The notes: generated by a model from the sequence alone, not told the origin. A stretch of 64,000 nt of DNA from an uncultured Gammaproteobacteria bacterium (GCA_964533055.1 CAZHKZ010000003.1:2483-66482); one strand, 5' to 3'; positions 12,938-40,160 are shown, counted from the stretch's first letter. Program-made: numbers and translations.

Positions 12938-12940
12938 ACA

Positions 12941-13978: not shown

Positions 13979-14023
13979 AGAAGGTTATTGTAGCGTGTGG
14001 TTTTTGTTGATACAAGAAGCAAA

Positions 14024-15724
14024 TCAGTTTTTTTGAGTATTTTTAAAAATGGTTACAACAGGGTGATCATAGACACTAAATGACTCGTCAAAATTCTGAT
14101 CATTGAACTCAATTGTAGTAAATGGAATATGCGCAAATGATGTAAATTCAGCTACTTTTTTGTAGCCTAACTTTTCGGCAAAAAGGTCATTATAGTACTG
14201 TGCGGTTTGAACATAACATTTTCCAGGAGGAAGTTTCGAGCAGGTGGTTAGCTTTCTCAGTGGCGTGTAAAGTCTATTGGATGCAAGAATTATATAGTCA
14301 CTTCTCTGGAGTGAAAGATTGATACTGTCCCACTTAGCTGGTGTATCAGCTTCATAAAGTGGCAGTGTCTCATATTTATAAGCTCCTGCATTAAATATCG
14401 GGAGTGAATCGTCCCAATGTTCAATTGCAAGTGTGCTTTGGGGTGGAATATTTTTCATGATCCAAAGACTTGCCTCAAATCTTGTAAAAGGTTTTGCATA
14501 GATTGTCATAAATGATAGCGGCCATAAGAGGATTGCGATAAGTGTAATTCCAATAAGGAGCCTTTTCCCAGAATAAACTTTTCTGAATATTTGACTACAT
14601 AGAAGAGCTCCAAAGAGAGCGAGAATTGGATAGAGAGGAAGCATGTACCTGACAAAACCAATTGCAAACTTACCAACAATGAAGAAATATACCATGAAGA
14701 AAAGGAGGAGGATTAGCTCTTGCCTTGAAAAGTCCATCGCTCTCCTTCTGGCAAGAGCGACTATTCTATAGATTATTCCTGCAAAGCAAATGGTTGCAAG
14801 AAATGGTCCCATACCGATAAAAAATATTTGGGTAAGATCGTAGAGATAGGGAATTTTGCCAACATATTGTAGCGTGTAGGGGAAAGTAAAGGCGTCTCTT
14901 GTCATTGCTGCTTGAGCAAGAGTTTGCTGTACGAATTCCTGAAAATCTAGTGCAACATAAGGTTGCAATATGAAGAACAATAGAATGGTAACCGTACCAG
15001 TGGCACTAAAATAGTAGAGTAGCTTTTTGATATAGGCTGGGATATGTTGGGCCCAGATGCTTGGTCTATGAGGCTGCTTTATAAAGAGTAGAGCAAAATC
15101 CAGGATGATTGTTGCTAGAAATGAGGTCAAGAGAACTGTGGCGCTAATCTTTGTTGCAAAAGCACAGGCAAGTGAAGCGCCGATCGCCAAGGCTATTTTT
15201 AGTGAAGGTTTCTTATAAAGTCTAATGAGCAGATAGAGCGTAAGTGTAATGAAGAATGTTAAAAGTGTATCAACAGCATAAAATCGCGAGAGTTGGATCG
15301 GGAGCACAGCAGTGCCATAGAAAAATGATGCCAATAGTCCTACTTTTTCTCCCCAGAGTTTTTTACCAATATAAAAAACAAGTGCTAATGTCCCAAGGTC
15401 TGCAATAAGTGAAAGACATCTCCCAATAAGCGTGAGATAGTCATAAGAAAAGTACTCTGGCCTAATGAGGCTGAAAGCTTTTCCAGTCCAGTACAGAAGA
15501 TAAAGCGGTAGTGATCCGTATGCGAAGAAATGCGGATTCCAGCTACTATCTTTGTCAAGAAATTGTGAGACTGAGGTCGGGAATGACAGCTCATTTGTGA
15601 AGAGTACAACTGCCCTTTCGTCTGGGTGCATATGATATCCCTGGTCCCAATTGATTCCCACTAGTCGGAGAATTCCAGAAATGAGAAATATTCCTATAAA
15701 GAGTAACTTAATGTTTTGCTTCAT
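14024..15724 (-). CDS. GT-C fold membrane glycosyltransferase (PMT_2/ArnT-like), paralog 1
   Basis: 566 aa polytopic. First-loop motif YHMHPDERAVV (DE motif). Paralogous to the adjacent gene. Confidence 0.6.
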   Translation of the reverse strand: MKQNIKLLFIGIFLISGILRLVGINWDQGYHMHPDERAVVLFTNELSFPTSVSQFLDKDSSWNPHFFAYGSLPLYLLYWTGKAFSLIRPEYFSYDYLTLIGRCLSLIADLGTLALVFYIGKKLWGEKVGLLASFFYGTAVLPIQLSRFYAVDTLLTFFITLTLYLLIRLYKKPSLKIALAIGASLACAFATKISATVLLTSFLATIILDFALLFIKQPHRPSIWAQHIPAYIKKLLYYFSATGTVTILLFFILQPYVALDFQEFVQQTLAQAAMTRDAFTFPYTLQYVGKIPYLYDLTQIFFIGMGPFLATICFAGIIYRIVALARRRAMDFSRQELILLLFFMVYFFIVGKFAIGFVRYMLPLYPILALFGALLCSQIFRKVYSGKRLLIGITLIAILLWPLSFMTIYAKPFTRFEASLWIMKNIPPQSTLAIEHWDDSLPIFNAGAYKYETLPLYEADTPAKWDSINLSLQRSDYIILASNRLYTPLRKLTTCSKLPPGKCYVQTAQYYNDLFAEKLGYKKVAEFTSFAHIPFTTIEFNDQNFDESFSVYDHPVVTIFKNTQKN

Positions 15725-17330
15725 GTCTAATTTTATACAGTATTACTGTAGGTCTATCAAAGATATTAACTGTTTGTTCAAAGCTGAAGATTGGACTATT
15801 TATATAGAGGAGTGAGCACCAGAAGTCACAAGGTGTTTCATAAATCTTCTCAAATCGACCAGAGGTAGTAATCTCATTATAAACAGCATTTCCTTTAGGG
15901 AAGTTTTTTGCATCAACAAGTCGAGTTTTATAAAGTCTCTGACTAGGAAGAATTAGATAGTCTGACTGATCAATCAAAGCGTTATATTTTTCCACTGTAG
16001 ATTCGGGGGAATTATTATCAAGGTCGTAGAAATTAAATAGAGTTATATTGGGATATGCCGAGTTGAAGGGGGTGATTCCGAGATCATAGACCTCAGATAT
16101 GATTGGACTTGTGCTCGGAATTGTTTTGTTGGCAAATGTTAATGCTTGAATTCTTGTATCAGTATCAAAATACACAGTTTTAATAAATGCAAAAGCCCAG
16201 AGCATACATAAAACTCCAATGCTGCCTTCTATAAAGTGCGATCCTTTTTTAGGGAAGAATTTTAGGTTTGAAATCTCGCTTAGACCATAAGCCACACAGA
16301 GGTAGATAAATGGAAGCGTTGGGATGAAGTAACGTGTCCATTGCGCAAATAAAAATGTTTGGGAAAAGAATGTGATCGAGAGAAAGATGAGAAGAAAAAT
16401 GAGCGGGTAGTCGACCCTTTTCCTCAGAGATACTAGGATGAACACAAATGATATTGGAAAGAGTATGGCGAATATCGGGCCAAGAATGAATGGATAAATT
16501 CGCATAATCGGGAAGAGAATTGGTATTGCTGAAAGGAATTCGCCAGTATAAAAAACAATAAGTTTGCCAAGAGCAACATTTGACTCATATGAAATACTGT
16601 TGAGAAAGGATTGGTGATCTAAATACACAAATGGATTCGTGAGTAGGTAGCAGGCTGCAGTTGCAATGAAGATGACGATGGTAGTAAATAATTTTTTATG
16701 AAAAGGATAGCGTTTTTTTAAATAGAGAGCGCCAATAGTTGGGAGAAAAATAATGCTTGAGATTTTAACGCTTATGAGAATTCCAAGTGACACCGCGATT
16801 ATGATTATTGCTTGGCGAGTTGGCTTGTGGAAATATTTGATAAAACCATAGAAGAGAAGTGTTGAGAAGAAGGTAAGCCATGTTTCAAATGTTCCAAAGT
16901 GGGCGTACTGAATTAGGCCAATGCTAAATGTGGAAAAAAATGCAGCGATGAGACCCGTTCGATTATCTTTAAGAAGCTGCCCTATTTTAAAGATAAGATA
17001 GATGGTGCCAATAGATAAAAATGTCGAGAATCCTCGTAAAATAAGAATCGCGTCCTCAAAGCTTACTTGATTAATCGAGGGGTGGTTGTGCATTGTTAGG
17101 AAGTTTTTGAGAAGCCCTGTAAAAAAAGTAAGGTAGATCGGTAGAGATCCATACGCAAAAAAGTGAGGATTAAATTGGTCTGGGTAGGAGAGTCCAGCGA
17201 TGGCGCTTGCAATATTTCTTTCATCGGGATGAAAGAAGAATGGCGATCCCCACGCTAGAGATATCAGTCTAAGTATTGATGCAAGGCATAAAAGTGCGAT
17301 AAGTATTTTTTGAGAATATTTATCCATCAT
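15708..17330 (-). CDS. GT-C fold membrane glycosyltransferase (PMT_2/ArnT-like), paralog 2
   Basis: 540 aa polytopic. FFFHPDERNIAS motif and overall similarity to the 14024..15724 protein. 17 nt overlap implies translational coupling. Confidence 0.6.
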   Translation of the reverse strand: MMDKYSQKILIALLCLASILRLISLAWGSPFFFHPDERNIASAIAGLSYPDQFNPHFFAYGSLPIYLTFFTGLLKNFLTMHNHPSINQVSFEDAILILRGFSTFLSIGTIYLIFKIGQLLKDNRTGLIAAFFSTFSIGLIQYAHFGTFETWLTFFSTLLFYGFIKYFHKPTRQAIIIIAVSLGILISVKISSIIFLPTIGALYLKKRYPFHKKLFTTIVIFIATAACYLLTNPFVYLDHQSFLNSISYESNVALGKLIVFYTGEFLSAIPILFPIMRIYPFILGPIFAILFPISFVFILVSLRKRVDYPLIFLLIFLSITFFSQTFLFAQWTRYFIPTLPFIYLCVAYGLSEISNLKFFPKKGSHFIEGSIGVLCMLWAFAFIKTVYFDTDTRIQALTFANKTIPSTSPIISEVYDLGITPFNSAYPNITLFNFYDLDNNSPESTVEKYNALIDQSDYLILPSQRLYKTRLVDAKNFPKGNAVYNEITTSGRFEKIYETPCDFWCSLLYINSPIFSFEQTVNIFDRPTVILYKIRHEAKH

Positions 17331-20365: not shown

Positions 20366-20983
20366 TTATGGCATATAGAATACTTTTGCCTGAAGGTATA
20401 GCCTGTATCCGTTAAGTTCTGTTGGGACCTGGAGAGAAATATTTTTGAAGGTTAGTAGGCGATCAAAATTAGTGATCTCAGTATAGAAATTGATCAGGTT
20501 GTCATATTCTCCCTGGGCCCCGATGATCATGTTAAATTGTGCCAGTTCGCCAACAGTAGCGGGCTGACTTAATGGGATGTTTGTGATCTGGAGCTGACTT
20601 AAGAAAACATTGTTGTCATTTGCGATTGTCCTCACTTTTGCAATAAGACTTGGCCCACTTGGCTCATTTGGAATTGCGGCATTTATATATTTCAGGTCTG
20701 ATGTAATTTGTGAATATTGACTTGAGAGATTGCTAAGGGAGGTGATCTTGACAGCAAGCTTGTCATGGACGAACTTGCTATCATCAAGTCTTTTTTGTAG
20801 CTCAAATATTGTGGTAAGTGTGGGCATGATCGCAAAAATAGCAAAGAAGATGAACGCAAAGAGTGACAAAATTATCGTTGCATAGTTCTGTGCTTTTTCC
20901 TCGCGAAGATTGATTTTTGAGCGAACTAGCTCGAGATATTTTTGTTTTGATAAATTAGTAAAGAATTCTTTTGATACTTTCAT
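20366..20983 (-). CDS. type IV pilus assembly PilO-like protein
   Basis: Short cytoplasmic N-terminus, one TM (ATIILSLFAFIFFAIFAIMP), a coiled-coil segment, then a C-terminal domain. Start set at the internal Met (20981-20983) lying 4 nt after the PilN stop (TAATATG). Confidence 0.45.
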   Translation of the reverse strand: MKVSKEFFTNLSKQKYLELVRSKINLREEKAQNYATIILSLFAFIFFAIFAIMPTLTTIFELQKRLDDSKFVHDKLAVKITSLSNLSSQYSQITSDLKYINAAIPNEPSGPSLIAKVRTIANDNNVFLSQLQITNIPLSQPATVGELAQFNMIIGAQGEYDNLINFYTEITNFDRLLTFKNISLQVPTELNGYRLYLQAKVFYMP

Positions 20984-20984
20984 A

Positions 20985-21569
20985 TTATTTCCCTTGATTT
21001 GGCGGCAACGTCTCTTTGCCGCCTGTTTCTGGTAGAGTGATCTCTGCCGAGATCTGGGCGTCAATATCAGCAGTCTCAGTCTTGTTATCAATCCGATCGA
21101 TGCTTACTGTTGAGAGCTCTTTGAGGTTTTGAAGTGAGGTTACATATTTCTTAAGCGTCGCAACATCGGGGGCGGAAACAGTGAGCGAGATGCTCTTTTC
21201 ACCCAGTTGAATATTCGTGAACGTGATTGGGCTTTGCGTCAGTCCTGCGATTTTAGTAAAGATCTGCGGCGCAGCTTTTGACGCTTTATCTATAACCGAT
21301 GCATGGGTTAATTTGCTGATTAACACCCGGTATTTCGATTCATCTAGGGAAGATGCTTCAACGATCACACCTTGAGCTTTGATTTTGTCACTATAGTCAA
21401 CTATTTGCCTGTCTAGGTTGAATCTATAGAGGAACGCGCCAAGTGCAATTGTCTCAGTGAGAATGACTAAGAATCTGCCGCCTGTGATTGCCCATTTAAC
21501 AAATACATCAAGTGAAGTGGAATTCTGTTTTTTTATGAGATTGATTCGTAATTGAGCTTTGTTATCCAT
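20985..21569 (-). CDS. type IV pilus assembly PilN-like protein
   Basis: N-terminal LRINLIKK resembles the PilM-binding INLLP motif. One TM, periplasmic coiled-coil, then a ferredoxin-like region. 194 aa. Confidence 0.5.
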   Translation of the reverse strand: MDNKAQLRINLIKKQNSTSLDVFVKWAITGGRFLVILTETIALGAFLYRFNLDRQIVDYSDKIKAQGVIVEASSLDESKYRVLISKLTHASVIDKASKAAPQIFTKIAGLTQSPITFTNIQLGEKSISLTVSAPDVATLKKYVTSLQNLKELSTVSIDRIDNKTETADIDAQISAEITLPETGGKETLPPNQGK

Positions 21570-21702
21570 GGCAGAAGGATCGTAGTTACTTCATCCCAAA
21601 TTTAATCGGGAAACGCAAAAAAAAGCTGAAGCTTTTACCAGCCTTATTTCAGTCTAGGTATTTAGGAGAAAAATGTCAAAGAAATTCGTAGCTATTTTCA
21701 TC

Positions 21703-21731
21703 TGGAAAGAGCGAGCAGAGTGTGGTATACT
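21703..21731 (+). promoter_or_regulatory. putative extended -10 promoter for fusA (TGG-TATACT)
   Basis: TGGTATACT at 21723-21731 with a weak -35 TGGAAA 17 nt upstream, about 45 nt before the fusA ATG. Confidence 0.35.
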
Positions 21732-21776
21732 AAGTTTCGTTCGAAATCGCACAAGCGATCTTCGGATTTTTACTAT

Positions 21777-23885
21777 ATGGCTGAAAAGACACAAAAAGTT
21801 ACACTAGACAAGATCCGCAATATTGGAATTATCGCGCATATTGACGCGGGTAAGACCACTACCACTGAAAGAATTCTTTTCTACACAGGCAGAACATACA
21901 AGATTGGAGATATTGATGATGGTAATACTCAGATGGACTGGATGGAGCAGGAGAAAGAGCGAGGAATCACCATTGTTTCTGCTGCAACAACCACATTCTG
22001 GAAAGATCACAGAATCAATATTATTGATACGCCAGGCCACGTAGATTTTACTGCTGAAGTTGAACGCTCACTACGCGTACTTGATGGCGGTATTACCGTC
22101 CTTGATGCCGAAGAGGGAGTTCAATCCCAGTCAGAAACAGTGTGGAGACAGGCTGACAAGTATAAGGTTCCACGTATTTGTTTTGTCAATAAAATGGACA
22201 AGCTCGGGGCAGACTTTCTTGCAACAGTAAAGAGTATCGAGGATAGGCTTGGTGCAAATCCTGCAATTATGGTAATCCCAATTGGCGCAGAGGATACTTA
22301 TGTTGGTAACGTTGACCTTCTTTCTAGGCAGTCAATCATCTGGAATTCAGAAGAGCTTGGCGCAACATTTGAAGTTAAGGATGAAGTTCCTGAAGACTTG
22401 AAGGCAAAGGTTGAGGAATATCGCTCAAAGCTTATCGAGAAGATCTCCGAAACAGATGATGCGCTTCTAGAAAAGTACCTTGGCGGTGAGGAGCCAACCG
22501 TGGAGGAATTAAAGAAAGCTCTTCGAGCTGCAGTTATTTCCTACAAGCTCGTTCCTATTTATGCAGGCACATCGCTTCGCAATAAAGGTGTTCAGCCGCT
22601 TCTTGATGCTGTTATCGACTATCTTCCATCCCCAGTTGATCTTAAAGAGGTAAAGGGAATTAATCCAAAGACAGAAGCTGAGGAGATTCGCCAACTCGTT
22701 CCTGATGCGCCATTTAGTGGACTTGCGTTTAAGATTCAGAATGATCCTCACGTTGGTAAGCTCACATATTTCCGTGTTTATTCTGGTCAGATTAATTCTG
22801 GATCATATATCTACAACAGTACAAAGGGCGTAAAAGAAAGAGTTGGAAGACTCTTAATGATGCATGCTAATGAGCGTGAAGAAATCAAAGAAGGATATGC
22901 TGGAGAAATTGTAGCTATTGTTGGGCTTAAGGATACTGGTACTGGCGATACGCTTTGTGACGAAGCAACCCCAATTGTTCTTGAAAAAATCTCATTCCCA
23001 GACCCTGTTATTTCTCTTGCGATTGAGCCTCAGACAAAGTCAGATCAGGAAAAACTTGGCTATGCGCTTAAGCGTCTAACTGAAGAGGATCCAACATTCT
23101 CAGTTAAGTCCAACCCAGAAACAGGTCAGACAATCATTTCAGGTATTGGCGAGCTTCAGCTCGAAGTTATGGTTGATCGTATGAAGAGAGAGTTTAATGT
23201 GATTGCAAATGTTGGTGCTCCACAGGTTGCGTACAAAGAATCTTTTGCAAATACAGTTCAGGCAGAAGGTAAATACATTAAGCAGTCCGGAGGACGTGGA
23301 CAGTTCGGACACTGCTGGCTTCGTGTTGAGCCAAAGGCAAGGGGCGAGGGCAATGAGTTTGTGAGCGAGATCAAGGGTGGAGCTATTCCAGCTGAGTTCG
23401 TTCGCGCAGTTGAGAAGGGTGTTTGGGAGACGCTTGAAAATGGAGTTCTTCTTGGATATCCAGTAGTTGACGTTAAAGTTGCCTGTTATGACGGTTCATA
23501 TCATGATGTCGATTCATCTGAGGTAGCATTTAAGATCGCAGCATCACAGGCATTGCAAGCTGCATCAAAGATGACAGAGATGAATCTCCTTGAACCTATC
23601 ATGAAGGTCGAGGTTACAACTCCATCTGAATTCATGGGAGATGTAATGGGAGATCTTTCAAGTAAGAGAGGTCAGATCTTGGGAACTGAGGAGCGATCAA
23701 GAGCTACTATCATTAACGCGCTTGTGCCACTTTCTGAATTATCTGGATATGCAACACAGATCAGATCTATGTCCCAAGGTCGTGCGAGTTACTACATGGA
23801 ACCAAGTCACTATGATGTTGTGCCACGAAATCTCGTTGAGCAAATGGTTGCAAAGTCTACCTTCACAGGTCGCGTCGAAGCATAA
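21777..23885 (+). CDS. fusA: elongation factor G
   Basis: [32 protein letters not shown]. Start trimmed to MAEKTQK at 21777. Confidence 0.95.
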
Positions 23886-23924: not shown

Positions 23925-24986
23925 ATGAAAAAGATCCGCGTTGGTATTCTTTTTGGCGGGCAGTCTGCTGAGCACGAGGTCTCTATCCGTTCGGCTAAGA
24001 ATGTCTATGATGCTCTTGATAAGTCTAAGTATGAGCCAGTTCTCATTGGCATTAGCAAAAAAGGCGAATGGCTCACCCTTCCTACCACATATTTTCTTCA
24101 AGGAGATTCAAAAGAATATGCGTTACCTGAAAAATCATCTCCTCAAACACCTCTTTCAGTAGATATTGTTTATAAGCAAAATATTGATGTTGTTTTCCCA
24201 GTCTTGCATGGGCCGATGGGTGAGGATGGGACCGTACAGGGAATGCTCAAACTCCTAGGCATTCCATTTGTAGGTCCAGGAGTGTTGAGCTCGGCCGTTA
24301 GCATGGATAAAGATGTAGCAAAAAGATTGCTGCGTGATGCGGGAATCCCAATCGTTCCTTTCCTCGTATTTCGATACTTAGAAAAGGGAAAGATCTCATT
24401 TGAGGCAATAAAAAAGGGGCTAGGTCTTCCCTTTTTCGTAAAGCCTGCCAATCTAGGCTCATCTGTTGGAGTATACAAGGTTCACTCAGAAAATGAATTT
24501 GATAATGCTATCAAAGATGCTTTTGCATATGATCAAAAAATCTTAATTGAAAAAGGAATAAATGCACGTGAAATTGAATGTGGCGTGCTTGGAAATGAAG
24601 AGATGAAAGCGTCGGTACTTGGAGAGATCATTCCACACCATGAATTTTATGACTATGCTGCAAAATATCTCGATGAAGAAGGGGCAGGTCTGCAGATTCC
24701 GGCAGAACTGGCACAAGAGCATGTAAAAATGATCCAGGATTTGGCGATAAAGACATGTAGGGCATTGGGGGTTGAGGGGATGGCGAGAGTAGACTTCTTT
24801 TTAGACAGAGATACCTCGGAGGTCTATGTAAATGAGATAAATACGATCCCAGGCTTTACGAGTATAAGTATGTATCCTAAGTTGTGGCAAGAAAGTGGAG
24901 TGTCCTACCAAGAGCTGGTTAATCAGCTGATCTCGCTTGCGATGGCTCGACAAAGTCGTGAAGATAGCCTAAGCACAACAAGATAA
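23925..24986 (+). CDS. ddl: D-alanine--D-alanine ligase
   Basis: RVGILFGGQSAEHEVS N-terminus, ATP-grasp core, C-terminal EINTIPGFT. Confidence 0.9.
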   Translation: MKKIRVGILFGGQSAEHEVSIRSAKNVYDALDKSKYEPVLIGISKKGEWLTLPTTYFLQGDSKEYALPEKSSPQTPLSVDIVYKQNIDVVFPVLHGPMGEDGTVQGMLKLLGIPFVGPGVLSSAVSMDKDVAKRLLRDAGIPIVPFLVFRYLEKGKISFEAIKKGLGLPFFVKPANLGSSVGVYKVHSENEFDNAIKDAFAYDQKILIEKGINAREIECGVLGNEEMKASVLGEIIPHHEFYDYAAKYLDEEGAGLQIPAELAQEHVKMIQDLAIKTCRALGVEGMARVDFFLDRDTSEVYVNEINTIPGFTSISMYPKLWQESGVSYQELVNQLISLAMARQSREDSLSTTR

Positions 24987-25015: not shown

Positions 25016-26188
25016 ATGGCGCGAAAGAAAATTAGTGAATTTAAGGCAAAGAGTCTCGTGCTTTCAGCATTAAGTATCCCCTATCAAGGCATCTCTCTTC
25101 AAAAAGGTGATACCACTCCCCTCTCATCGCTTGATGAAAATAAGAAATATGTTCTCAAAGTGGATCAGGGTATTAAGAAGCGATTCAAGCTCGGTCTTGT
25201 TGCTCTTAATATCTCAAAGACTGAAATTGAGGGCGTAATGAATGACTTGGCTGAGAAAGGATATCAGTCTTTTATTCTTGAGGAGTATTTAGAGCATGAT
25301 CAAAAGGAGGAGCGATATCTTTCATTTGAGAGAACAAGGGACGGAATCACGTTTATGGCTTCAAGAAGCGGCGGTGTCACAGTTGAAGACAATATGGGCC
25401 AAATTAAAAAGTTTACTCTCCCTCATCAGACACATGATGCGGCTGAATATCTGGAGCTACCTGAGGATATTTTACGCAAGATTGTTCAATGCATGGATAG
25501 GCTTCATATCTCTTTTCTTGAAATTAACCCACTTGTTGTTAGCAATAATGACCTCACTTTTCTCGATATGGCGATTGAGGTTGATGATGCGGGAGAATTT
25601 TTCGTTGAGAAGGCTTGGGTCTCTGAGGATTTTGTAGTTGAGGCAGGTAGCAAGACAAAAGAAGAAGAGGCTATTGAGGAATTGTCATCCAAGAGTCAGG
25701 CATCATTTAGGCTCGTGGTCCTCAATCCGAATGGGTCAATATTTATGCTACTTTCTGGAGGTGGAGCGAGCATTGTGTTAGCAGATGAGGTTTATAACGT
25801 CGGTCAAGGCAAAGAGCTCGCTAATTATGGAGAGTATAGTGGCAATCCAAATGCAGAGGAGACATATCTCTATACAAAAGAGATACTAAGCCTCCTTTTA
25901 TCATCCAGTGCGAGTAATAAAAAGCTGATAATCGCAGGTGGAGTTGCTAATTTTACCGATATTCGCATTACGTTTAAAGGAGTGATCAAGGCAATTGCTG
26001 ATGTAAAAACAATGCTTTCAGAGCAGGGTGTCAAAGTCTTCGTCAGACGAGGTGGCCCATTTGAAAAAGAGGGGCTACAGATGATTGAAGACTTTCTCAA
26101 AAAAGAAAACCTCTATGGATTTGTTACTGGCCCAAATCTCCCTTTAACAGAGATAGTTGAGAAAGCGATAGGTGGTGCTCATGCTTAA
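25016..26188 (+). CDS. aclB: ATP-citrate lyase, ATP-grasp (beta/AclB-type) subunit
   Basis: Collinear with the N-terminal half of eukaryotic ACLY. Shared blocks: KISEFKAKSLVL, VLKVDQGIKKRFKLGLVALN, LEINPLVV, LLSGGGASIVLAD, ELANYGEYSGNP, IIAGGVANFTDI, FKGVIKAI, VFVRRGGP. Confidence 0.85.
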   Translation: MARKKISEFKAKSLVLSALSIPYQGISLQKGDTTPLSSLDENKKYVLKVDQGIKKRFKLGLVALNISKTEIEGVMNDLAEKGYQSFILEEYLEHDQKEERYLSFERTRDGITFMASRSGGVTVEDNMGQIKKFTLPHQTHDAAEYLELPEDILRKIVQCMDRLHISFLEINPLVVSNNDLTFLDMAIEVDDAGEFFVEKAWVSEDFVVEAGSKTKEEEAIEELSSKSQASFRLVVLNPNGSIFMLLSGGGASIVLADEVYNVGQGKELANYGEYSGNPNAEETYLYTKEILSLLLSSSASNKKLIIAGGVANFTDIRITFKGVIKAIADVKTMLSEQGVKVFVRRGGPFEKEGLQMIEDFLKKENLYGFVTGPNLPLTEIVEKAIGGAHA

Positions 26189-27983
26189 CATAGAAGAACT
26201 TCGAAAGGCAGACATTGGCATTCTTTTTATCGGAAGCCACCCAGGTATTATCCAGTCAATATTGGATTTTGACTATTTGTCCGGTAAGTCTGCTCCAAGC
26301 GTCCTTGCTGTTATCGCGACAAATAGGAAGTACGAGAAGTATTTTTTTGGTTCGAAAGAGGTGCTCATCCCCGTTTATGAATCGTGTTCTGCGATCCCAG
26401 AGTCTCGCTCAAAAGACATAACATTGTTTTACAATGTTACATCAGCAAGAAGAGTACTGACTTCTTCAAAGGATGCGTTCTTGACGATTCCGTCAATTAA
26501 GCTTGGAGTTATTTTTGCAGAAGATGTTCCAGAGGAGCACTCGCTACTTTTGCGTGACTTCATTCTTGAGAGAAAGAAGACCTTGTTGGGTCCAGCAAGC
26601 GTTGGTCTTTTATTGCCAGGAATTCTAAAGTTAGGTGCGATTGGTGGCGTTGACTATAGACAGTTGATAGCCTCACATGTCTTTGAGATGGGCGATACAG
26701 CAGTCTTTTCTGCCTCAGGAGGAATGACAAATGAGATTATTCGAATTGTATCGCTTAATCAGAAGAGGCTGAGTTTTGCTCTTTCATTTGGTGGAGATCG
26801 CTTCCCAGTTCTTACCCCGGAAGATGCATTTTTGGCAGCTGAGAATGATCCTGCTACAAAAATGATCGTTTATTTTGGTGAACTAGGAGGGACCGATGAA
26901 TATGCCCTCATTGAGCTTATGAGGGAGAAAAAAATCACAAAGCCAATTGTCTGCTATATCGGTGGAGTAGTAGCTGAACTTTTTGAGACTCCCCCACAGT
27001 TTGGACACGCAAAAGCCATGGCGCAAAAAGGAGAGGAAACAGCTCGGGCAAAAAGAGATGCACTGAGGATGGCGGGTGCGAAGGTGGCGGAGTCATTTGC
27101 TGACTTTATTGAATATATTGGCAAGGGTGAGGTTTCAAAAGATTCTGAATTTGAGTATACTAACCGTATGGACGACTTACAGGATCGCAAGCATGCGCTC
27201 ATAACAACAACAATTTCAAATGATGAACGTGGAGAAGTACAGGTGCTCGGAGAGCCTCTTCTAAACTTTGTCTCAAGTAGGCCATTTGCTTCAATTGTAA
27301 GTTCGATGTTCTTGGGTAAAAAAACAATCTCTAAAGAACTTGAAGAATTTGTAGACTTTACTCTAAGGCTTCTAGTTGAACATGGCCCATATGTTTCAGG
27401 TTCTGTTAATACAATTGTGACGGCAAGAGCAGGTCGCGATCTCGTCTCATCCCTCGCTACAGGCCTCCTGACAATCGGGCCACGCTTTGGTGGAGCCATC
27501 AATCAAGCAGCAAGTAATTGGATTGCTGGAGTAAAGGACGGGAAAGATCCCAGTGAATTTGTCGAAGAATTTGCGAGCAAGAAAGAATATATCTCAGGCA
27601 TTGGACATCGAAAGTATAGGGTCGATGCTCCAGATCCTCGTGTAGCAAAATTACTCTCATTCACAGACTCACTTACTGAGAAAAAATATAGCTCTTTTGC
27701 GAAGAGCGTTGAGAAGGTCACTGTGGCAAAAAAAGGCAATCTTATTCTCAATGTCGATGGTGCGATAGCTGCTATTCTTTTGGATATTCTTTCTGAGAAA
27801 GAAGGTATGAAGACCGAGGAGTTGGATAATCTAGTAAAGACAGAGTTTTTTAACGCCCTCTTTGTCCTTTCAAGGAGTGTTGGATTTATCTCTCACTTCT
27901 TAGATCAAAAGAGAATTGATGAAGGCCTTTTTAGACTTGATGAAGAGCATGTTACTTATGCAAAGGACCTCTTTAACGAATAG
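26172..27983 (+). CDS. aclA: ATP-citrate lyase, CoA-binding/phosphohistidine + citryl-CoA lyase (alpha/AclA-type) subunit
   Basis: LDFDYLSGKSAPSVLAV, KEVLIPVY, KPIVCYIGG, catalytic His motif QFGHAKAM. The C-terminal citrate-synthase-like domain has HGPYVSGSVNTIVTARAGRDLVSSLATGLLTIGPRFGGA, GIGHRKYR, NLILNVDG, FVLSRSVGFISHFLDQKR. 17 nt overlap with aclB. Confidence 0.85.
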   Translation: MVLMLNIEELRKADIGILFIGSHPGIIQSILDFDYLSGKSAPSVLAVIATNRKYEKYFFGSKEVLIPVYESCSAIPESRSKDITLFYNVTSARRVLTSSKDAFLTIPSIKLGVIFAEDVPEEHSLLLRDFILERKKTLLGPASVGLLLPGILKLGAIGGVDYRQLIASHVFEMGDTAVFSASGGMTNEIIRIVSLNQKRLSFALSFGGDRFPVLTPEDAFLAAENDPATKMIVYFGELGGTDEYALIELMREKKITKPIVCYIGGVVAELFETPPQFGHAKAMAQKGEETARAKRDALRMAGAKVAESFADFIEYIGKGEVSKDSEFEYTNRMDDLQDRKHALITTTISNDERGEVQVLGEPLLNFVSSRPFASIVSSMFLGKKTISKELEEFVDFTLRLLVEHGPYVSGSVNTIVTARAGRDLVSSLATGLLTIGPRFGGAINQAASNWIAGVKDGKDPSEFVEEFASKKEYISGIGHRKYRVDAPDPRVAKLLSFTDSLTEKKYSSFAKSVEKVTVAKKGNLILNVDGAIAAILLDILSEKEGMKTEELDNLVKTEFFNALFVLSRSVGFISHFLDQKRIDEGLFRLDEEHVTYAKDLFNE

Positions 27984-27986
27984 GAT

Positions 27987-28727
27987 TTGATGTTAGAAGA
28001 AAGTCTACACTCCCAAGAAGATCCTCAAAGACTCATCGATTCTTTCGTGCGTCCGATCTGGTATCACGAACTTTTGACTGATCAGACTCGGAGTCTGCGA
28101 GATCAAGCAAAAACAGGTGTAGAAGATGTACTCATGGGTAGTCATATTGGGCTCGATTCTGTGATTGCAATTCCAACAGGAGGCTCCCGTTGGACACTAG
28201 AAGGCAATGATCCGATTCATTATCAATTTCTTTTTCTAGATGACGCACCTCCATTAGATGATGTGAGGCACGCACTTACAGATAATTGGATATTGCCTCG
28301 AGATTGGGATAGTTCTGAGCGTGCAATCAGCCACTTGGAGAGATCAAATGCACTTAAAGCTCTTATGATTACTCCAGATGATTTTGTTGTAGGCAACGTA
28401 GAAAAAGCAAGAGAGCTGCGATTGAAGGCCTTGAAAAAAGGTGGTAAAGGCTGGTGGCATGATGGTGTTACAGATTACGTGGATAAGAAGGTCAATACAT
28501 GGGGGAAGCCTAAGAACGATTTAGATATGGGTAAATTGAGATTTAGGCGAGCTTTGGATCAGAGACTTGCTGGAGAGTCGTCTCCAAAAGAGTGGGAGAA
28601 GGGGTTTTTTGAGAGACTAAAGAATAGGAGAGTTCCAACATACTCGGAATACTCGCATGCGCTTGAGCAGCTCGGAGGAGCAATAGATTGTCCAGAAAAT
28701 CGCAATATTGTCGATCCTCACGTATAA
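27987..28727 (+). CDS. hypothetical soluble protein, translationally coupled to aclA
   Basis: 246 aa, no TM, no motif I recognise. Starts 4 nt after the aclA stop. Confidence 0.5.
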   Translation: MMLEESLHSQEDPQRLIDSFVRPIWYHELLTDQTRSLRDQAKTGVEDVLMGSHIGLDSVIAIPTGGSRWTLEGNDPIHYQFLFLDDAPPLDDVRHALTDNWILPRDWDSSERAISHLERSNALKALMITPDDFVVGNVEKARELRLKALKKGGKGWWHDGVTDYVDKKVNTWGKPKNDLDMGKLRFRRALDQRLAGESSPKEWEKGFFERLKNRRVPTYSEYSHALEQLGGAIDCPENRNIVDPHV

Positions 28728-28736
28728 TACGAGTGT

Positions 28737-29825
28737 ATGAGGCGTCTTCTCATTGGTATTATTCTGCTGGTCATCGCTGCGTTATCCGTCTTTCTAAGTC
28801 TTAGATTTGTTCGGTCAAAAATTGACAGCATTATGACTTCACCTTCTAGCGTGCTCTCATCTCCTACTCCAGGGGTTAAGGCTATCCCCACAACTCGCTC
28901 TGACTCATCGCTCTTTGTGCCCTACTGGACCTTGGATGAGGGAAATTTTGCTTTGGATCCGTACAAAAGCTATATCTATTTTGGTATCACATCTGGGAGT
29001 GATGGTATCAATAAACAAGAAGATGGCTACAAGAATCTGAAGACGTTCTCTAAGGCTGCATCCGGCAAGCGAACGCTTTTGGCCCTGAGGATGATTGATA
29101 ATAAGGTCACAACGCCCGTCCTTAAGGATAAGAAGAAGCAGGAGAAGATCATCAATGATGCTATTTTTGTCGCACATGAGTTTGGTTTTGACGGGATAGT
29201 TATGGATCTTGAGGTATCAGGACTTCCTTTTACCTCATTGATAGATCAAATTACATCTTTCAACAAGGATTTTTACGAAAAAGCCAAGGCAGCAAGGCTG
29301 AGTTATAGCATTACTGCGTACGGCGATACATTTTATCGGGTAAGACCATTCTCAATTGAAGAGCTTGAGAAGTCATCAGACATGATCTATGTCATGGCGT
29401 ATGATTTTCATAAAGCCAATGGTAATCCTGGTCCCAATTTCCCCCTAGCAGGGTCTGATACGTATGGATATGACTATAAGCGGATGGTGGGGAGCTTTTT
29501 GGATGCTGTTCCTGCTCACAAGCTCACTTTCATATTTGGTATGTATGGCTATGATTGGGTGATTGATGAGGGTGGTAAGGCAAAAGATGCTGGAACTGCT
29601 ATTTCTCTCAAAGAGACGAATGCATCTCTTCTTGATGACTGCAATTATACTACTTGTAAGTGGGAGAGGGAGGGTGGCTCATCTGAAATTATGATTGAAT
29701 ACTCGGACGGCGATACAAAACATATTGTTTGGACTGAGGACGAAGAATCGACTAAGCGCAAGAAGGAATATCTTCAGAAAATGGGCATAGGCTCATTTGC
29801 CTACTGGGCCTACTCGTATTTTTAG
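28737..29825 (+). CDS. membrane-anchored glycoside hydrolase family 18-like protein
   Basis: N-terminal TM. (beta/alpha)8-type motif FGFDGIVMDLE aligns to the GH18 DGxDxDWE motif with the catalytic Glu retained. MAYDFH and YWAYSY motifs. Confidence 0.6.
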   Translation: MRRLLIGIILLVIAALSVFLSLRFVRSKIDSIMTSPSSVLSSPTPGVKAIPTTRSDSSLFVPYWTLDEGNFALDPYKSYIYFGITSGSDGINKQEDGYKNLKTFSKAASGKRTLLALRMIDNKVTTPVLKDKKKQEKIINDAIFVAHEFGFDGIVMDLEVSGLPFTSLIDQITSFNKDFYEKAKAARLSYSITAYGDTFYRVRPFSIEELEKSSDMIYVMAYDFHKANGNPGPNFPLAGSDTYGYDYKRMVGSFLDAVPAHKLTFIFGMYGYDWVIDEGGKAKDAGTAISLKETNASLLDDCNYTTCKWEREGGSSEIMIEYSDGDTKHIVWTEDEESTKRKKEYLQKMGIGSFAYWAYSYF

Positions 29826-29862
29826 GCACGTTCATGCCTAGAAATAGGGGTGTTTAGGGTAT

Positions 29863-29890
29863 TGACGCTTTTTCTAGAATGTAGTATCAT
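29863..29890 (+). promoter_or_regulatory. sigma70-type promoter upstream of tuf (TTGACG-17-TATCAT)
   Basis: -35 TTGACG 29863-29868, 17 nt spacer, -10 TATCAT 29885-29890. Confidence 0.45.
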
Positions 29891-29950: not shown

Positions 29951-31129
29951 ATGGCAACATTTAATCGCAACAAACCACACGTAAATATCGGAACCATCGG
30001 TCACGTTGATCATGGTAAGACTACAACTACAGCAGCTATTGCTACCGTTCTTTCAAAGCATGGCGGTGGAGAAGCTAAGAAGTACGAAGATATTGATAAT
30101 GCACCAGAAGAAAAAGCACGTGGCGTTACGATTAATATCTCCCACATTGAGTACGAGACAGAAAATCGTCACTATGCTCACATTGACGCTCCAGGACACG
30201 CAGATTACATTAAGAACATGATCACTGGTGCGGCTCAGATGGACGGCGCAATTCTCGTTGTTTCTGCTCCTGATGGTCCAATGCCTCAGACAAGAGAGCA
30301 CATCCTTCTTGCACGCCAAGTTGGTGTTCCTTCAATCGTTGTTTATCTCAATAAGTGCGACATGGTAGATGATGAAGAGCTCCTAGACCTCGTTGAGATG
30401 GAAATTCGTGAGCTTTTGACTAAGTATCAGTATCCTGGAGATACAACTCCAATCATCCGTGGCTCATCTCTTAAAGCACTCGAAGGCGATGCAGCTTATG
30501 AAGCAAAGATTATGGAACTTATGAAAACTGTTGATGAGTATGTTCCAACTCCAGAGCGAGATCTCGACAAGCCATTCCTTATGCCTGTAGAGGATGTTTT
30601 CTCTATCAAAGGTCGAGGAACTGTTGTAACGGGAAGAGTCGAGAGAGGCGTTATTAAAGTTAACGAGCCTATTGAAATCGTCGGTATGAAAGCTACAGCT
30701 AACTCAGTTGTTACCGGTGTTGAGATGTTTAGAAAGCTCCTTGATCAAGGTCAAGCTGGAGACAACGTTGGATTACTTCTCCGTGGAGTTGAAAAAGAAG
30801 ATGTAGAGCGTGGACAAGTGCTTGCTAAGCCTGGTTCTATTACTCCACACACAGATTTTGAAGCTGAAGCATACATCCTTACTAAAGAAGAAGGCGGACG
30901 TCACACTCCATTCTTCAAGGGGTATCGCCCACAATTCTACATTAGAACGACAGACGTTACTGGATCTGTTGAATTGCCAGCAGGTGTTGAAATGATTATG
31001 CCTGGAGACAATACAAAGATGAATGTTTCACTCATCGTACCAGTTGCTTTAGAAGAAGGTCTCCGATTCGCTATCCGTGAGGGTGGACGAACTGTTGGAG
31101 CCGGGGTTATCTCAAAGATAATCAAATAA
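29951..31129 (+). CDS. tuf: elongation factor Tu
   Basis: [21 protein letters not shown], full-length 392 aa. Confidence 0.95.
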
Positions 31130-38904: not shown

Positions 38905-39234
38905 ATGAAATCAAGAGTTGAACAAAGACAGCAGAGAACTAGAAACAAACTTCGATATATTTCATCGAGGCCACGACTTTCTGTATTTAGATCTAATCAG
39001 CATATCTATGCCCAGATTATTGATGATGCGGAGAAGGTAACGCTCGTATCAGCATATGAAAAAGATACTACTGGTACAAAGATCGAGAGAGCAAAGAAGC
39101 TTGGAATTGCACTCGCAGCTGCTGCACTAGAGAAGAAAATCAAGGAAGTTGCTTTTGACAAAGGAAGCTATGCATATCACGGAAGAGTAAAGGCATTTGC
39201 TGAGGGAGCACGTGAAGGAGGGCTTCAATTCTAA
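38905..39234 (+). CDS. rplR: 50S ribosomal protein L18
   Basis: [18 protein letters not shown]. Confidence 0.9.
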
Positions 39235-39235
39235 T

Positions 39236-39718
39236 ATGAACGATAATTATCAAAGAAGTGAATTCATCGAACAGGTTGTTAAGATCAGCCGTGTTTCCAA
39301 AAAGACAAAAGGTGGAAATAAAGTTGGTTTTTCAGCGCTCACTGTTGTGGGTGATGGAAAAGGCAGAGTAGGCGTCGGGCTTGGAAAAGCGCCAGACGTT
39401 TCCTCAGCTGTAAGAAAAGGTATTATTCTTGCTAAGAAGCATTTTATCGTTGTACCACTTATTAATGGAACTATTCCATCACGAGTTGATGTAAAGGTGG
39501 GAGCAGCTCGCATCATGTTAAAGCCAGCTCCAGCAGGTAGTGGTATTATTGCGGGCGGAGCAGTTCGAAGTGTTGTTTCAGCTGCTGGTATTAGCAACAT
39601 TTCATCAAAGGTTCTTGGTAGTAATAATAAGGGTGGCAACGTTAATGCGACACTTGAAGCACTCCGACAGTTATCAGTAATGCAAGAGAAAAAGAAGGAA
39701 CTTACAAAGAAGAAATAA
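39236..39718 (+). CDS. rpsE: 30S ribosomal protein S5
   Basis: VVKISRVSKKTKGGNKVGFSALTVVGDGKGRVGVGLGKA. Start set to the ATG at 39236 after the rplR stop. Confidence 0.92.
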   Translation: MNDNYQRSEFIEQVVKISRVSKKTKGGNKVGFSALTVVGDGKGRVGVGLGKAPDVSSAVRKGIILAKKHFIVVPLINGTIPSRVDVKVGAARIMLKPAPAGSGIIAGGAVRSVVSAAGISNISSKVLGSNNKGGNVNATLEALRQLSVMQEKKKELTKKK

Positions 39719-39719
39719 T

Positions 39720-40160
39720 ATGGAATTACATACATTACCACGATTTAATACAAAGGGGAAAAGAAGACTGGGGCAAGGTCATGGCTCCGGTCGTTCAAAG
39801 ACTGCAGGTAGAGGTACAAAGGGTCAATTGGCTCGTAATACCGTCCCGCTTACATTTGAAGGTGGAGCACTTTCACTGATTAAGCGTCTTCCATTTAGAC
39901 GAGGAAAAAGTAGAAATTACTCAATAAAAGCTGAGATCGCTGTTCTTAATGTTGGTGACCTCAAAGTCTTCGCAAAAGATGAGCAAGTAACTGTAGCCTC
40001 GCTTCAAAAGCACAACCTCTTAACAACTGGCGAGACAGCTGTTAAGATATTGGGAGATGGAGATGTTACTGTTCCCCTAACAGTATTAGTTCCTGCGACA
40101 AAGAGTGCGAAAGAGAAGATCGAAAACGCAGGCGGTAAGGTTGAATCTACAGTTTCATGA
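39720..40160 (+). CDS. rplO: 50S ribosomal protein L15
   Basis: [19 protein letters not shown]. Follows rpsE directly, with no L30 gene between. Confidence 0.93.

Follow-up and report, generated by a model that had tools for sequence, protein, structure and literature searches.

Two adjacent genes on a 64-kb stretch of DNA (64,000 nucleotides, hereafter the window), which carries a CPR-like ribosomal operon, were originally predicted to encode the subunits of an ATP-citrate lyase (ACL), followed by a third gene that might be an accessory component. This raises the questions of whether the two proteins are a genuine ACL, what such an enzyme would do in this host, and whether the third gene, here called orf245, belongs with it. 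In the reading I consider probable, a complete Levybacteria ACL would convert scavenged citrate to anabolic acetyl-CoA, used largely for envelope acetylation, and orf245 would be unrelated to it.

Gene organization of the locus

Three open reading frames are present on the + strand as predicted, with raw limits of 25016..26188 (390 aa, ATG), 26172..27983 (603 aa, GTG) and 27987..28727 (246 aa, TTG), but the starts of the last two had to be moved. The aclA start is most likely the ATG at 26181 (600 aa) and not the GTG at 26172, as a Shine-Dalgarno-like AGGTGG (26170..26175) precedes this ATG, and the resulting product is identical to the database protein P0001. The third ORF most likely starts at the ATG at 27990 (245 aa), matching the call on the public contig, 6 nt past the aclA stop and on the same strand. 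The predicted division into two genes, as in bacterial ACL, holds with subunits of 390 and 600 aa after start correction. The 3' end of aclB runs 8 nt into aclA, and I infer that the two genes are translationally coupled. In a scan of the window, promoter matches were no more frequent than the shuffled expectation, so it is gene spacing that suggests co-transcription of this block.

Table 1. Features of the aclBA locus, in window coordinates.
Feature	Position	Strand	Remarks
fusA (EF-G)	21777..23885	+	Opens co-directional block fusA-ddl-aclB-aclA-orf245-GH18
ddl (D-Ala-D-Ala ligase)	23925..24986	+	Pfam PF07478, E 5e-76; 29-nt gap to aclB downstream
aclB, ACL small (beta) subunit, 390 aa, ATG	25016..26188	+	Carries an ATP-grasp and a citrate-binding domain
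aclA, ACL large (alpha) subunit, 600 aa	26181..27983	+	Carries CoA-binding, CoA-ligase (phosphohistidine) and citryl-CoA-lyase domains
aclB/aclA junction	26170..26188	+	AGGTGG, probable aclA ATG at 26181, 8-nt overlap; read off the sequence
Phosphohistidine loop GHAKA	27003..27017	+	His equivalent to human H760; Lys in place of G762
NLILNVDG motif	27738..27761	+	Contains lyase catalytic Asp (human D1026), from alignment to human ACLY
orf245	27990..28727	+	Soluble, lineage-restricted; predicted Pol-beta-like nucleotidyltransferase fold
GH18-like protein	28737..29825	+	N-terminal membrane anchor; Pfam PF00704, E 1.3e-19; conserved end of island
Promoter-like site 5' of tuf	29862..29890		Promoter/terminator scan
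tuf (EF-Tu)	29951..31129	+	Followed by S10 ribosomal-protein operon

Identification of the enzyme

Both subunits possess ACL-specific Pfam domains and align over nearly their full length to solved ACLs, in agreement with the original prediction. AclB matches PF24948 (ACL-type ATP-grasp, 96.8 bits for a cutoff of 83) and PF16114 (Citrate_bind, E 2.4e-55), its EINPL and LD motifs align to human ACLY, and its PDB matches include the N-terminal part of human ACLY (E 8e-60) and Methanothrix ACLY-A (E 9e-59). Alignment to 3MWD shows that it keeps the equivalents of human G309, N346, F347, T348 and R379, of which I take G309, N346, T348 and R379 to have roles at the citrate site of that structure. 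AclA matches PF00549 and PF00285 (E 8e-22), and its residues 337–597 are covered by NCBIfam citryl-CoA lyase models. Residues 18–594 align end to end with Methanothrix ACLY-B (E 5e-111), and the protein also aligns with residues 503–1093 of human ACLY (E 3e-103). Among solved structures, both subunits match Methanothrix ACLY-A/B and human ACLY best (E 1e-59 to 1e-111), and similarity at this level far exceeds what chance would give. Ordinary succinyl-CoA synthetase (SucC/SucD), the alternative named beforehand, is rejected: AclA has the C-terminal citryl-CoA-lyase domain, and the synthetase models score far below their cut-offs (TIGR01016, 60 bits for a cutoff of 375; NF004230, 103 bits for a cutoff of 336).

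Every catalytic residue checked is present in the window AclB and AclA. The His of the AclA phosphohistidine loop aligns with human H760, and the equivalents of E599, H760, H975, D1026, R1065 and R1085 are invariant in 81/81 AclA homologues, while that of H900, present in the window protein, is kept in 77 of the 81. The motifs initially quoted are all found, with ELANYGEYSG, FVRRGGP and NLILNVDG identical to human ACLY, and 19 of 25 positions in the HGPYVSGSVNT...LVSSL block are the same. QFGHAKAM, also listed as an identical block, is so only in part: QFGHA is common to both enzymes, but the loop reads GHAKA where the human protein has GHAGA. The GHAKA loop does not vary among the close homologues (120/120), and occurs in 77 of 81 locus-encoded AclA.

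As judged from these features, aclB and aclA form a complete heteromeric ACL of the AclB/AclA type, EC 2.3.3.8, with predicted activity. AclB contributes the ATP-grasp and citrate-binding domains, and AclA the CoA-binding, phosphohistidine and citrate-synthase-like citryl-CoA lyase domains. ATP would phosphorylate the loop His of AclA, citryl-phosphate and then citryl-CoA would be formed, and the lyase domain would split the latter to acetyl-CoA and oxaloacetate. The ACL reaction is near equilibrium and reversible in vitro, and the changed GHAKA loop could shift its kinetics; the enzyme might act as an ATP-forming citrate synthase, making citrate and ATP from acetyl-CoA, oxaloacetate, ADP and Pi. 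This is very unlikely, however, as neither a source of acetyl-CoA and oxaloacetate nor a use for citrate is evident in an organism assumed to be without a TCA cycle, and the gene context lends the reverse direction no support.

Host and phylogenetic placement

The sequence evidence assigns the host to the Levybacteria (CPR/Patescibacteria), as its CPR-like appearance had indicated. The window AclA is 96% identical to that of a Levyibacteriota MAG, whose gene order is the same, the named AclA homologues are from Levybacteria, and in the window the S5 gene directly adjoins that of L15, without an intervening L30. Over 120 homologue clusters share identities of 61% or more, and the enzyme occurs widely among Levybacteria and the CPR lineages related to them. 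To call it unexpected in CPR, as was done at first, was therefore an overstatement; ACL is also mentioned for Gracilibacteria (PMC6851277) and Saccharimonadia (PMC12577380).

In a NJ tree, AclA falls in a well-supported Levybacteria group (100% bootstrap), which nests with Dojkabacteria-type AclA (100% bootstrap). Saccharibacteria-type and then DPANN AclA branch just outside, at weak nodes (37–52% bootstrap). The window enzyme belongs to an ACL clade specific to CPR, which is recognizable by a GHAKA loop in place of GHAGA. An ancient transfer of ACL from archaea into CPR is possible.

That the nearest solved relatives are archaeal and eukaryotic, and that one related contig carries a Gammaproteobacteria label, could be taken to mean that ACL is foreign to this genome, placed there by faulty assembly or binning or gained by recent horizontal transfer. 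The chance of this is negligible. The genes lie inside one contig, flanked by fusA and tuf in a ribosomal operon of the CPR type, their GC content (0.41–0.44) is like that of the neighbouring sequence (window-wide 0.37–0.45), and the arrangement is repeated on many independent contigs from different samples, which together refute contamination; the Levybacteria group is moreover a deep, well-supported clade. Between the window and locus L001, aclA is 96% identical at the amino acid level (dN/dS 0.059, dS 0.38) and aclB 92% (dN/dS 0.087), both above rplC (90%) and ddl (79%). The aclBA pair is under strong purifying selection (dN/dS 0.06–0.09) and vertically maintained.

Gene neighbourhood and proposed role

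The neighbourhood of ACL was surveyed at 87 loci. aclB and aclA are adjacent at every locus where both were recovered on the contig. In the window's subclade they sit between fusA and tuf, beside ddl, and in other subclades beside murB, glmS, glmM, galE or sugar acetyltransferases. The ddl-aclB adjacency is kept in 7 loci, and fusA is found at most 4 genes upstream in 13 loci by clustering, or 11 by stricter relabelling. The families lying no more than 2 genes from ACL include MurB (14 loci), GlmS (11), Ddl (7), GlmM (6) and Acyl_transf_3 (5), with GalE and a GDP-mannose-type nucleotidyltransferase likewise recurring; past position 4, GlmS occurs 3 times and MurB, Ddl, GlmM and Acyl_transf_3 never. 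The GlmS, GlmM, MurB and GalE calls clear the NCBIfam curated cut-offs. Partners and orientations vary by subclade, and at L009 aclBA is preceded by a PseC/WbpB-like fusion and a NeuD/PglB-type sugar N-acetyltransferase. The ACL contexts of archaeal relatives differ, with an aminotransferase accompanied by Lyase_1 and OTCase, or a 2-oxoacid:ferredoxin oxidoreductase.

Since aclBA lies beside varied cell-envelope precursor genes across the clade, its acetyl-CoA is probably spent mostly on envelope acetylation, and these neighbours suggest an anabolic supply for the cell envelope and not a reductive TCA (rTCA) cycle. The neighbour families were picked from the same neighbourhoods in which they were counted, and common ancestry gives related genomes a shared gene order, so the enrichment in envelope genes is suggestive and does not amount to a formal test; in small CPR genomes such genes make up a large share of the total. 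Part of the signal is GDP-mannose synthesis, a pathway that needs no acetyl-CoA, and GlmU, the direct acetyl-CoA consumer in UDP-GlcNAc synthesis, is not found beside ACL in the surveyed loci.

In the proposed physiology, citrate would be obtained from a host or the environment, although no citrate transporter was found near ACL at any locus, and ACL would serve as the source of acetyl-CoA (and C4 units) in an organism assumed to be without a TCA cycle, a role paralleling that of the eukaryotic cytosolic ACLY. The acetyl-CoA would be spent largely on acetylation in amino-sugar, peptidoglycan and glycan synthesis. The sequence basis for this genome is 64 kb, and PFOR/PDH, ACS, citrate synthase and other TCA enzymes are assumed to be absent from the organism. 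Pacebacteria, which are related Microgenomates, have been reported to have neither a TCA cycle nor a way of making acetyl-CoA or oxaloacetate (PMC6064768).

ACL is the classical rTCA marker, and the 390/600 split is similar to that of Chlorobium AclB/AclA, which would point to autotrophic CO2 fixation. This is nonetheless highly improbable in a CPR host whose 64 kb hold housekeeping content only. No 2-oxoglutarate:ferredoxin oxidoreductase, fumarate reductase or PFOR is found within the 64-kb window, or near ACL in CPR-clade loci, related Microgenomates are without a TCA cycle (PMC6064768), and AclA is only 31% identical to the Chlorobiaceae enzyme, versus 37–40% to archaeal and eukaryotic ones.

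Scavenged citrate could instead be cleaved mainly for energy, with acetyl-CoA converted to acetate and ATP, and oxaloacetate passed on to pyruvate or malate, which would balance redox and yield further ATP. The chemistry is identical and compatible with the anabolic reading, and Sieber et al. (2019) proposed the same for a two-subunit ACL in a Gracilibacterium CPR genome (PMC6851277). I regard such a fermentation as unlikely, though still worth weighing: none of acetate kinase/Pta, ADP-forming acetyl-CoA synthetase, oxaloacetate decarboxylase, malic enzyme or a citrate carrier or other citrate transporter is found near ACL at any of the 87 loci, and what recurs beside it are translation factors and genes for envelope biosynthesis.

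A stronger form of the anabolic reading, which I hold only tentatively and think doubtful, is that Levybacteria and related CPR obtain all their acetyl-CoA from the GHAKA-type ACL, which would be dedicated to cell-wall and envelope sugar acetylation (GlcN-1-P N-acetylation, amino-sugar N-acetylation and glycan O-acetylation). If so, these ultra-small bacteria would need citrate from a host or the community for wall synthesis, and would possess a bacterial counterpart to cytosolic ACLY, hard-wired in a fusA-tuf growth operon.

The downstream gene orf245

It had been suggested that the third ORF is an accessory component of ACL. Its position immediately after aclA would be consistent with a third, accessory or regulatory subunit, and the gene is real and evolves under purifying selection (dN/dS 0.18, window versus L001). 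Such a role is very improbable. orf245 is 60% identical between these two genomes, where AclA is 96% identical, its family has only 7 members among 5.8 billion proteins, and it is found in only 4 of the 87 loci, plus L092. At L002, L003 and L092 it is distant from aclA, with NUDIX, ICMT and PIG-L genes in between, and it is absent from L005, L007 and L012–L014. Wherever present, it is directly upstream of a GH18 gene, which adjoins either orf245 or PIG-L, upstream of tuf, in the window, L001–L003, L007, L012–L014 and L092. orf245 thus tracks the downstream GH18 gene rather than ACL, and its adjacency to aclA in the window's lineage is explained by loss of the intervening genes.

The predicted fold of orf245 resembles nucleotidyltransferases, and is unlike any ACL, SCS or CS domain. 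GGS is found at residues 64–66 in close homologues (GS is missing from those of L002 and L003), and no D-x-D/E follows GGS in orf245 homologues, as it would in the Pol-beta-like signature G[GS]...D-x-[DE]. I take orf245 to be a fast-evolving protein with a predicted nucleotidyltransferase-like fold, unrelated to ACL.

Comparison with known systems

ACL in CPR is already known, and the Levybacteria enzyme adds to this; neither it nor its fusA-tuf and envelope-gene context was found in the literature searched. The Gracilibacteria (PMC6851277) and Saccharimonadia (PMC12577380) enzymes are likewise two-subunit and encoded in reduced CPR genomes, are considered archaeal-like, and are thought to cleave external citrate. 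Saccharibacteria-type sequences (P0152, P0303) show 34–38% identity, retain GHAGA and are not part of the GHAKA clade.

The ACLY-A/ACLY-B of Methanothrix (Methanosaeta) concilii (PDB 6HXI/6ZNW) is also two-subunit, with the same domain order and the same catalytic His, Asp and Arg; ACLY-B is the best PDB match to AclA, and ACLY-A near-best to AclB. It differs in having GHAGA for GHAKA and the human H908-equivalent His where the window has Val, whereas the window AclB is ∼30 residues shorter (390 versus 421 aa), and its host is a CPR bacterium, with a translation-factor and cell-wall gene context. Human ACLY (e.g. PDB 6POE) is collinear, its N-terminal part corresponding to AclB (E 1e-58) and residues 503–1093 to AclA, and shares the E599, H760, H900, H975, D1026, R1065 and R1085 equivalents. 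It is however one fused chain with a regulatory linker, where the window has two overlapping genes; AclA is ∼37% identical to the closest fused eukaryote-type homologues by BLAST. Human ACLY supplies acetyl-CoA outside the TCA cycle, and the window enzyme may play an analogous role.

Chlorobium limicola AclB/AclA (PDB 6HXJ) is heteromeric, with a similar 398/617 aa split and the same chemistry, but is much more distant (AclB E 3e-43, AclA E 3e-69; ∼31% identity to the Chlorobiaceae protein P0197), and operates in the complete rTCA cycle of an autotroph. The Hydrogenobacter citryl-CoA synthetase and citryl-CoA lyase (PDB 6HXQ/6HXP) and SCS possess homologous ATP-grasp, CoA-ligase and lyase modules, but their scores are far lower (E 5e-15 to 1e-22). 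Hydrogenobacter has its lyase as a protein of its own, and SCS is without one, whereas in the window it forms part of the alpha subunit, and the beta subunit, unlike in either of these systems, carries the ACL citrate-binding domain.

Identification of the ATP-citrate lyase

Three consecutive open reading frames (ORFs) lie on the plus strand at the coordinates originally predicted, with two starts refined here. The aclA start is most likely the ATG at 26181, with AGGTGG 5 nt upstream and an 8-nt overlap with the aclB stop, and its 600-residue product is identical to the database entry P0001. The third ORF (orf245) most likely starts at ATG 27990, 6 nt past the aclA stop, which gives 245 amino acids, as on the public contig. 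The motifs listed by the original prediction are all present, ELANYGEYSG, FVRRGGP and NLILNVDG being identical in human ACLY, and the lyase block HGPYVSGSVNT...LVSSL shares 19 of 25 positions with the human protein.

In Pfam, AclB matches PF16114, the citrate-binding domain of ACL (E = 2.4e-55), and, above the gathering score, the ACL-specific ATP-grasp domain PF24948, and AclA matches a CoA-ligase domain and a C-terminal citrate-synthase-type domain; citryl-CoA lyase models from NCBIfam match AclA residues 337–597. Compared with the ACL, succinyl-CoA synthetase (SCS) and citryl-CoA families, the proteins score best as ACL, and a SucC/SucD identity was rejected, as the NCBIfam scores fall far under their cut-offs. 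An alignment to 6POE places equivalents of human ACLY E599, H760 (the phosphohistidine), H900, H975, D1026, R1065 and R1085 in AclA, and AclB keeps the citrate-site residues G309, N346, T348 and R379 of human ACLY (3MWD structure). AclA shows two deviations: its phosphohistidine loop reads GHAKA, not GHAGA, and a Val stands where human ACLY has H908. The latter position is hydrophobic (V/L/M/I) across the window AclA and its homologues.

Lack of the lyase domain or of the catalytic His had been named as grounds against the assignment; both are present, and the domains and catalytic residues therefore favour ACL on either count. Every feature of a heteromeric ACL that sequence can reveal is found. 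The original call of an ATP-citrate lyase is thus upheld by domains, alignments and catalytic residues, and aclBA almost certainly encodes a functional enzyme.

Features of the window and of a related contig (L001, a relative with a 96% identical AclA)
Feature	Position	Strand	Remarks
PMT/TPR protein	3787..5373
DUF2298/PMT_2 cluster	10143..17330	-	DUF2298 membrane protein, NAD-dependent sugar epimerase/dehydratase, two PMT_2-type glycosyltransferases
Region ahead of fusA	20366..21777	-	PilO-like gene and 194-aa ORF; no rpsL/rpsG
aclB	25016..26188	+	ACL small subunit, 390 aa
aclA	26181..27983	+	ACL large subunit, 600 aa
GHAKA loop	27003..27017	+	Gly to Lys two residues past the catalytic His
orf245	27990..28727	+	245 aa
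GH18-like gene	28737..29825	+	N-terminal membrane anchor; motif DGIVMDLE
Ribosomal protein L3	31636..32508		290 aa
S5/L15 junction	39197..40160		S5 end 39718, L15 start 39720
ORF of L001	5635..9810 (L001)	-	1391 aa; inserted between GH18 and tuf

Host genome and the fusA-tuf block

At 96% identity, the window AclA resembles that of the Levyibacteriota MAG JAGOPV010000016, where the genes stand in the same order; the close homologues that bear names are 'Candidatus Levybacteria', and the 64-kb window has the housekeeping genes usual in CPR. Only one base separates the end of the S5 gene from the L15 start, so there is no L30 gene, and a missing L30 is a CPR hallmark reportedly described by Brown et al. 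(2015). The CPR host suspected from the ribosomal operon is confirmed by this relative, these homologues and the lack of L30. Contamination is excluded, as aclBA sit between fusA and tuf on a single contig, GC content is flat over the region, and the arrangement is repeated on many independent contigs. The related locus L002 (CAYRJZ010000001.1, a 346-kb contig) belongs to a record titled 'uncultured Gammaproteobacteria bacterium'; its AclA identity is 66%, and its order is of the Levybacteria type (fusA-ddl-aclB-aclA-NUDIX-ICMT-PIG-L-orf-GH18-tuf-S10). That label is probably wrong.

The genes fusA, ddl, aclB, aclA, orf245 and GH18 form a co-directional block with gaps of 39, 29, -8, 6 and 9 nt, a spacing from which I infer co-transcription. 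A 125-nt spacer follows GH18, ahead of tuf and the S10 operon, and holds the block's only intergenic promoter-like site, although the promoter/terminator scan, with 19 promoter-like sites versus 22 expected from shuffles, is not informative. No rpsL or rpsG precedes fusA, which breaks up the usual str operon and leaves fusA at the head of a block with ddl and aclBA. Ribosomal protein L3 carries a ~70-residue acidic C-terminal tail rich in Glu, Ala and Val, and the Pfam L3 domain covers its residues 89–186 only. The DUF2298/PMT_2 cluster and the further PMT/TPR protein suggest extensive envelope or protein glycosylation capacity.

The orf245 protein and its GH18-like neighbour

The original prediction regarded the third ORF as a possible accessory component of ACL. 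It has no match in Pfam, NCBIfam, PHROGs or PDB, by sequence or profile, and its family comprises seven members in a database of 5.8 billion proteins, including one added by a profile query. Between two genomes with 96% identical AclA, orf245 is 60% identical, with a dN/dS of 0.18. In the related loci L002, L003 and L092, the genes between aclA and its distant homologues encode a NUDIX hydrolase, a PIG-L-type deacetylase and, on the opposite strand, an ICMT-type methyltransferase, and it is absent from other Levybacteria (L005, L007, L012-L014); wherever found, it lies directly upstream of a GH18-like gene. Since it is separated or missing in relatives, its contact with aclA in the window is a lineage-specific result of gene loss. 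A role as ACL subunit is rejected on this absence or separation, its fast evolution and the GH18 linkage.

An AlphaFold model of orf245 made with six close homologues alone had a pLDDT of 40, and with the divergent homologue P0319 added a pLDDT of 81.9 and a pTM of 0.81. The structure prediction called for originally thus yielded a confident model, but Foldseek found no significant match to it in the PDB. The canonical GS...DxD signature is incomplete, and the distant homologues do not keep it. I conclude that orf245 is a real, fast-evolving protein with a predicted nucleotidyltransferase-like fold, and not an ACL component.

The GH18-like protein retains the catalytic Glu, with Val replacing the middle Asp of DxxDxDxE. 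Across the window's Levybacteria subclade its gene is conserved as the last one ahead of tuf, often with a PIG-L-type deacetylase upstream. The ORF inserted behind it in L001 has no counterpart in the window, and by eye looks like a SNF2-type helicase fused to a methyltransferase.

Prevalence, phylogeny and selection

A search of 5.8 billion proteins returned at least 120 AclA homologue clusters at 61% identity or more, and an exhaustive search gave a graded identity series among 50%-identity representatives. A pattern scan of genome contigs gave 3 loci, a figure that is no measure of prevalence, as its patterns suit close relatives. The original prediction found ACL unexpected in such a genome; this surprise was overstated, given the large conserved ACL clade and the earlier mentions of ACL in CPR.

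In a neighbour-joining tree (594 columns, 100 bootstraps; tips named in part, from cluster look-ups), the Levybacteria AclA form a group at 100% bootstrap, which nests at 100% with sequences including a Dojkabacteria protein. A Saccharibacteria-type group, then DPANN (Norongarragalinales), fall just outside at weak nodes (37–52%), and support for the order of the deep branches is poor.

The GHAKA loop is found in 120 of 120 close homologues, in 77 of the 81 AclA from fetched loci and also in Dojkabacteria-type sequences (together the GHAKA clade); GHAGA is kept by Saccharibacteria-type, DPANN, eukaryotic and most other ACLs. None of these 81 departs from the equivalents of E599, H760, H975, D1026, R1065 and R1085. 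Judged by sequence, aclBA is a functional and highly constrained enzyme.

Pairwise selection figures, window versus the relative with a 96% identical AclA
Gene	Amino acid identity	dN/dS	dS
aclA	96%	0.059	0.38
aclB	92%	0.087	0.47
rplC	90%	0.079	0.85
ddl	79%	0.106	1.2
GH18	76%	0.082	2.1

Gene neighbourhoods across the clade

For 80 metagenomic loci of the clade, ORFs were called, neighbours clustered and cluster representatives annotated. The aclB and aclA genes are adjacent wherever a contig yielded both. Within four genes of them, MurB occurs at 17 loci (mostly at +1 or +2, same strand), EF-G, GlmS and a mannose-1-P guanylyltransferase-like protein at 13 each, GalE at 11, Ddl, GH18, NUDIX and an Acyl_transf_3 membrane acyltransferase at 7 each, and GlmM at 6; these are cluster counts, and stricter relabelling gives slightly lower values (e.g. 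MurB 16, fusA 11). GlmS, GlmM, MurB and GalE pass the curated NCBIfam cut-offs, and GDP-mannose synthesis is part of the signal. Past position 4 of the same loci, GlmS turns up three times and MurB, Ddl, GlmM and Acyl_transf_3 never; the families compared here were chosen from these very neighbourhoods, and synteny is partly inherited. Partners and orientations differ by subclade, the orders being fusA-(alr)-ddl-ACL-...-GH18-tuf, fusA-x-ACL-murB, ACL-NTP transferase-glmS-vanW, acyltransferase-ACL-glmS and galE-NTP transferase-glmM-ACL. No convincing GlmU-like protein (nucleotidyltransferase plus hexapeptide domain) adjoins ACL, and no recurrent membrane transporter or citrate carrier was found beside it in the clade loci.

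At a GHAGA-type CPR locus (L009), aclBA follow a PseC/WbpB-like fusion and a NeuD/PglB-type sugar N-acetyltransferase in a glycan cluster. At a DPANN locus (L093, Norongarragalinales), they adjoin a class I/II aminotransferase, a Lyase_1 enzyme and an OTCase/ATCase, and at another archaeal locus (L094) aclA adjoins a 2-oxoacid:ferredoxin oxidoreductase, with aclB seemingly truncated (93 aa). Since these archaeal contexts differ, the neighbourhood method does not simply return envelope genes.

Possible physiological role

Related Microgenomates are reported to have neither a TCA cycle nor a way to make acetyl-CoA or oxaloacetate (PMC6064768), which together with the envelope-gene contexts supports a reading in which ACL would cleave scavenged citrate. 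Cleavage would supply the cell with acetyl-CoA and oxaloacetate, and the acetyl-CoA might go largely to acetylations during the synthesis of amino sugars, peptidoglycan and glycans. From gene context and the Microgenomates report, citrate cleavage for acetyl-CoA supply, outside the reductive TCA (rTCA) cycle, appears probable; a specifically envelope-directed role is a tentative and rather doubtful proposal. The lack of GlmU or a citrate carrier beside ACL, the GDP-mannose share of the signal, the way the families were chosen and the partly inherited synteny all limit the citrate-to-envelope reading. The main rival is catabolic citrate fermentation, a role proposed for a Gracilibacterium (PMC6851277), which is compatible with the anabolic reading. 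Autotrophy by the rTCA cycle is very unlikely, and was rejected on the CPR host, the distance of the enzyme from the Chlorobium rTCA type and the lack of a TCA cycle in the related Microgenomates.

If acetyl-CoA supply from scavenged citrate is the true role, citrate would be a specific metabolite needed by uncultivated episymbiont-like bacteria for cell-wall acetyl-CoA, and this need a testable lead for cultivation and host dependence.

Comparison with known ATP-citrate lyases

ACL has been described as 'rarely detected in CPR', and found in a Gracilibacterium (PMC6851277), aclAB are among the genes enriched in groundwater Saccharimonadia (PMC12577380), and a preprint noted citrate-cleavage homologues with wrong annotations in CPR and DPANN (10.1101/2022.10.25.513756). 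Literature found on ACL with Levybacteria, Microgenomates, Patescibacteria or Saccharibacteria makes passing mentions only, and no paper was found on the Levybacteria enzyme, the GHAKA signature, the fusA-tuf position or the recurrent envelope-gene linkage. The invariant Gly-to-Lys change beside the phosphohistidine is a natural, unstudied variant of a mechanistically central loop.

Many public AclA homologues are labelled 'hypothetical protein', 'succinyl-CoA synthetase alpha subunit' or 'citrate/2-methylcitrate synthase', and annotation-based surveys therefore miss or misassign clade members. Metagenome studies routinely read ACL genes as a sign of rTCA autotrophy. Copies from this large, conserved clade, whose CPR hosts are non-autotrophic, can push carbon-fixation estimates based on the marker too high.

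Human ACLY matches AclB at 8e-60 and, over human residues 503–1093, AclA at 3e-103. For Methanothrix concilii, ACLY-A matches AclB at 9e-59 and ACLY-B matches AclA residues 18–594 at 5e-111, whereas the Chlorobium subunits reach 3e-43 (AclB) and 3e-69 (AclA), and SCS alpha chains about 1e-22 against AclA. Chlorobiaceae AclA is 31% identical to the window AclA, and the fused eukaryotic proteins about 37%. On these matches, the window enzyme is closest to the archaeal and eukaryotic type, represented by Methanothrix and human, and lies far from the rTCA enzyme of Chlorobium.
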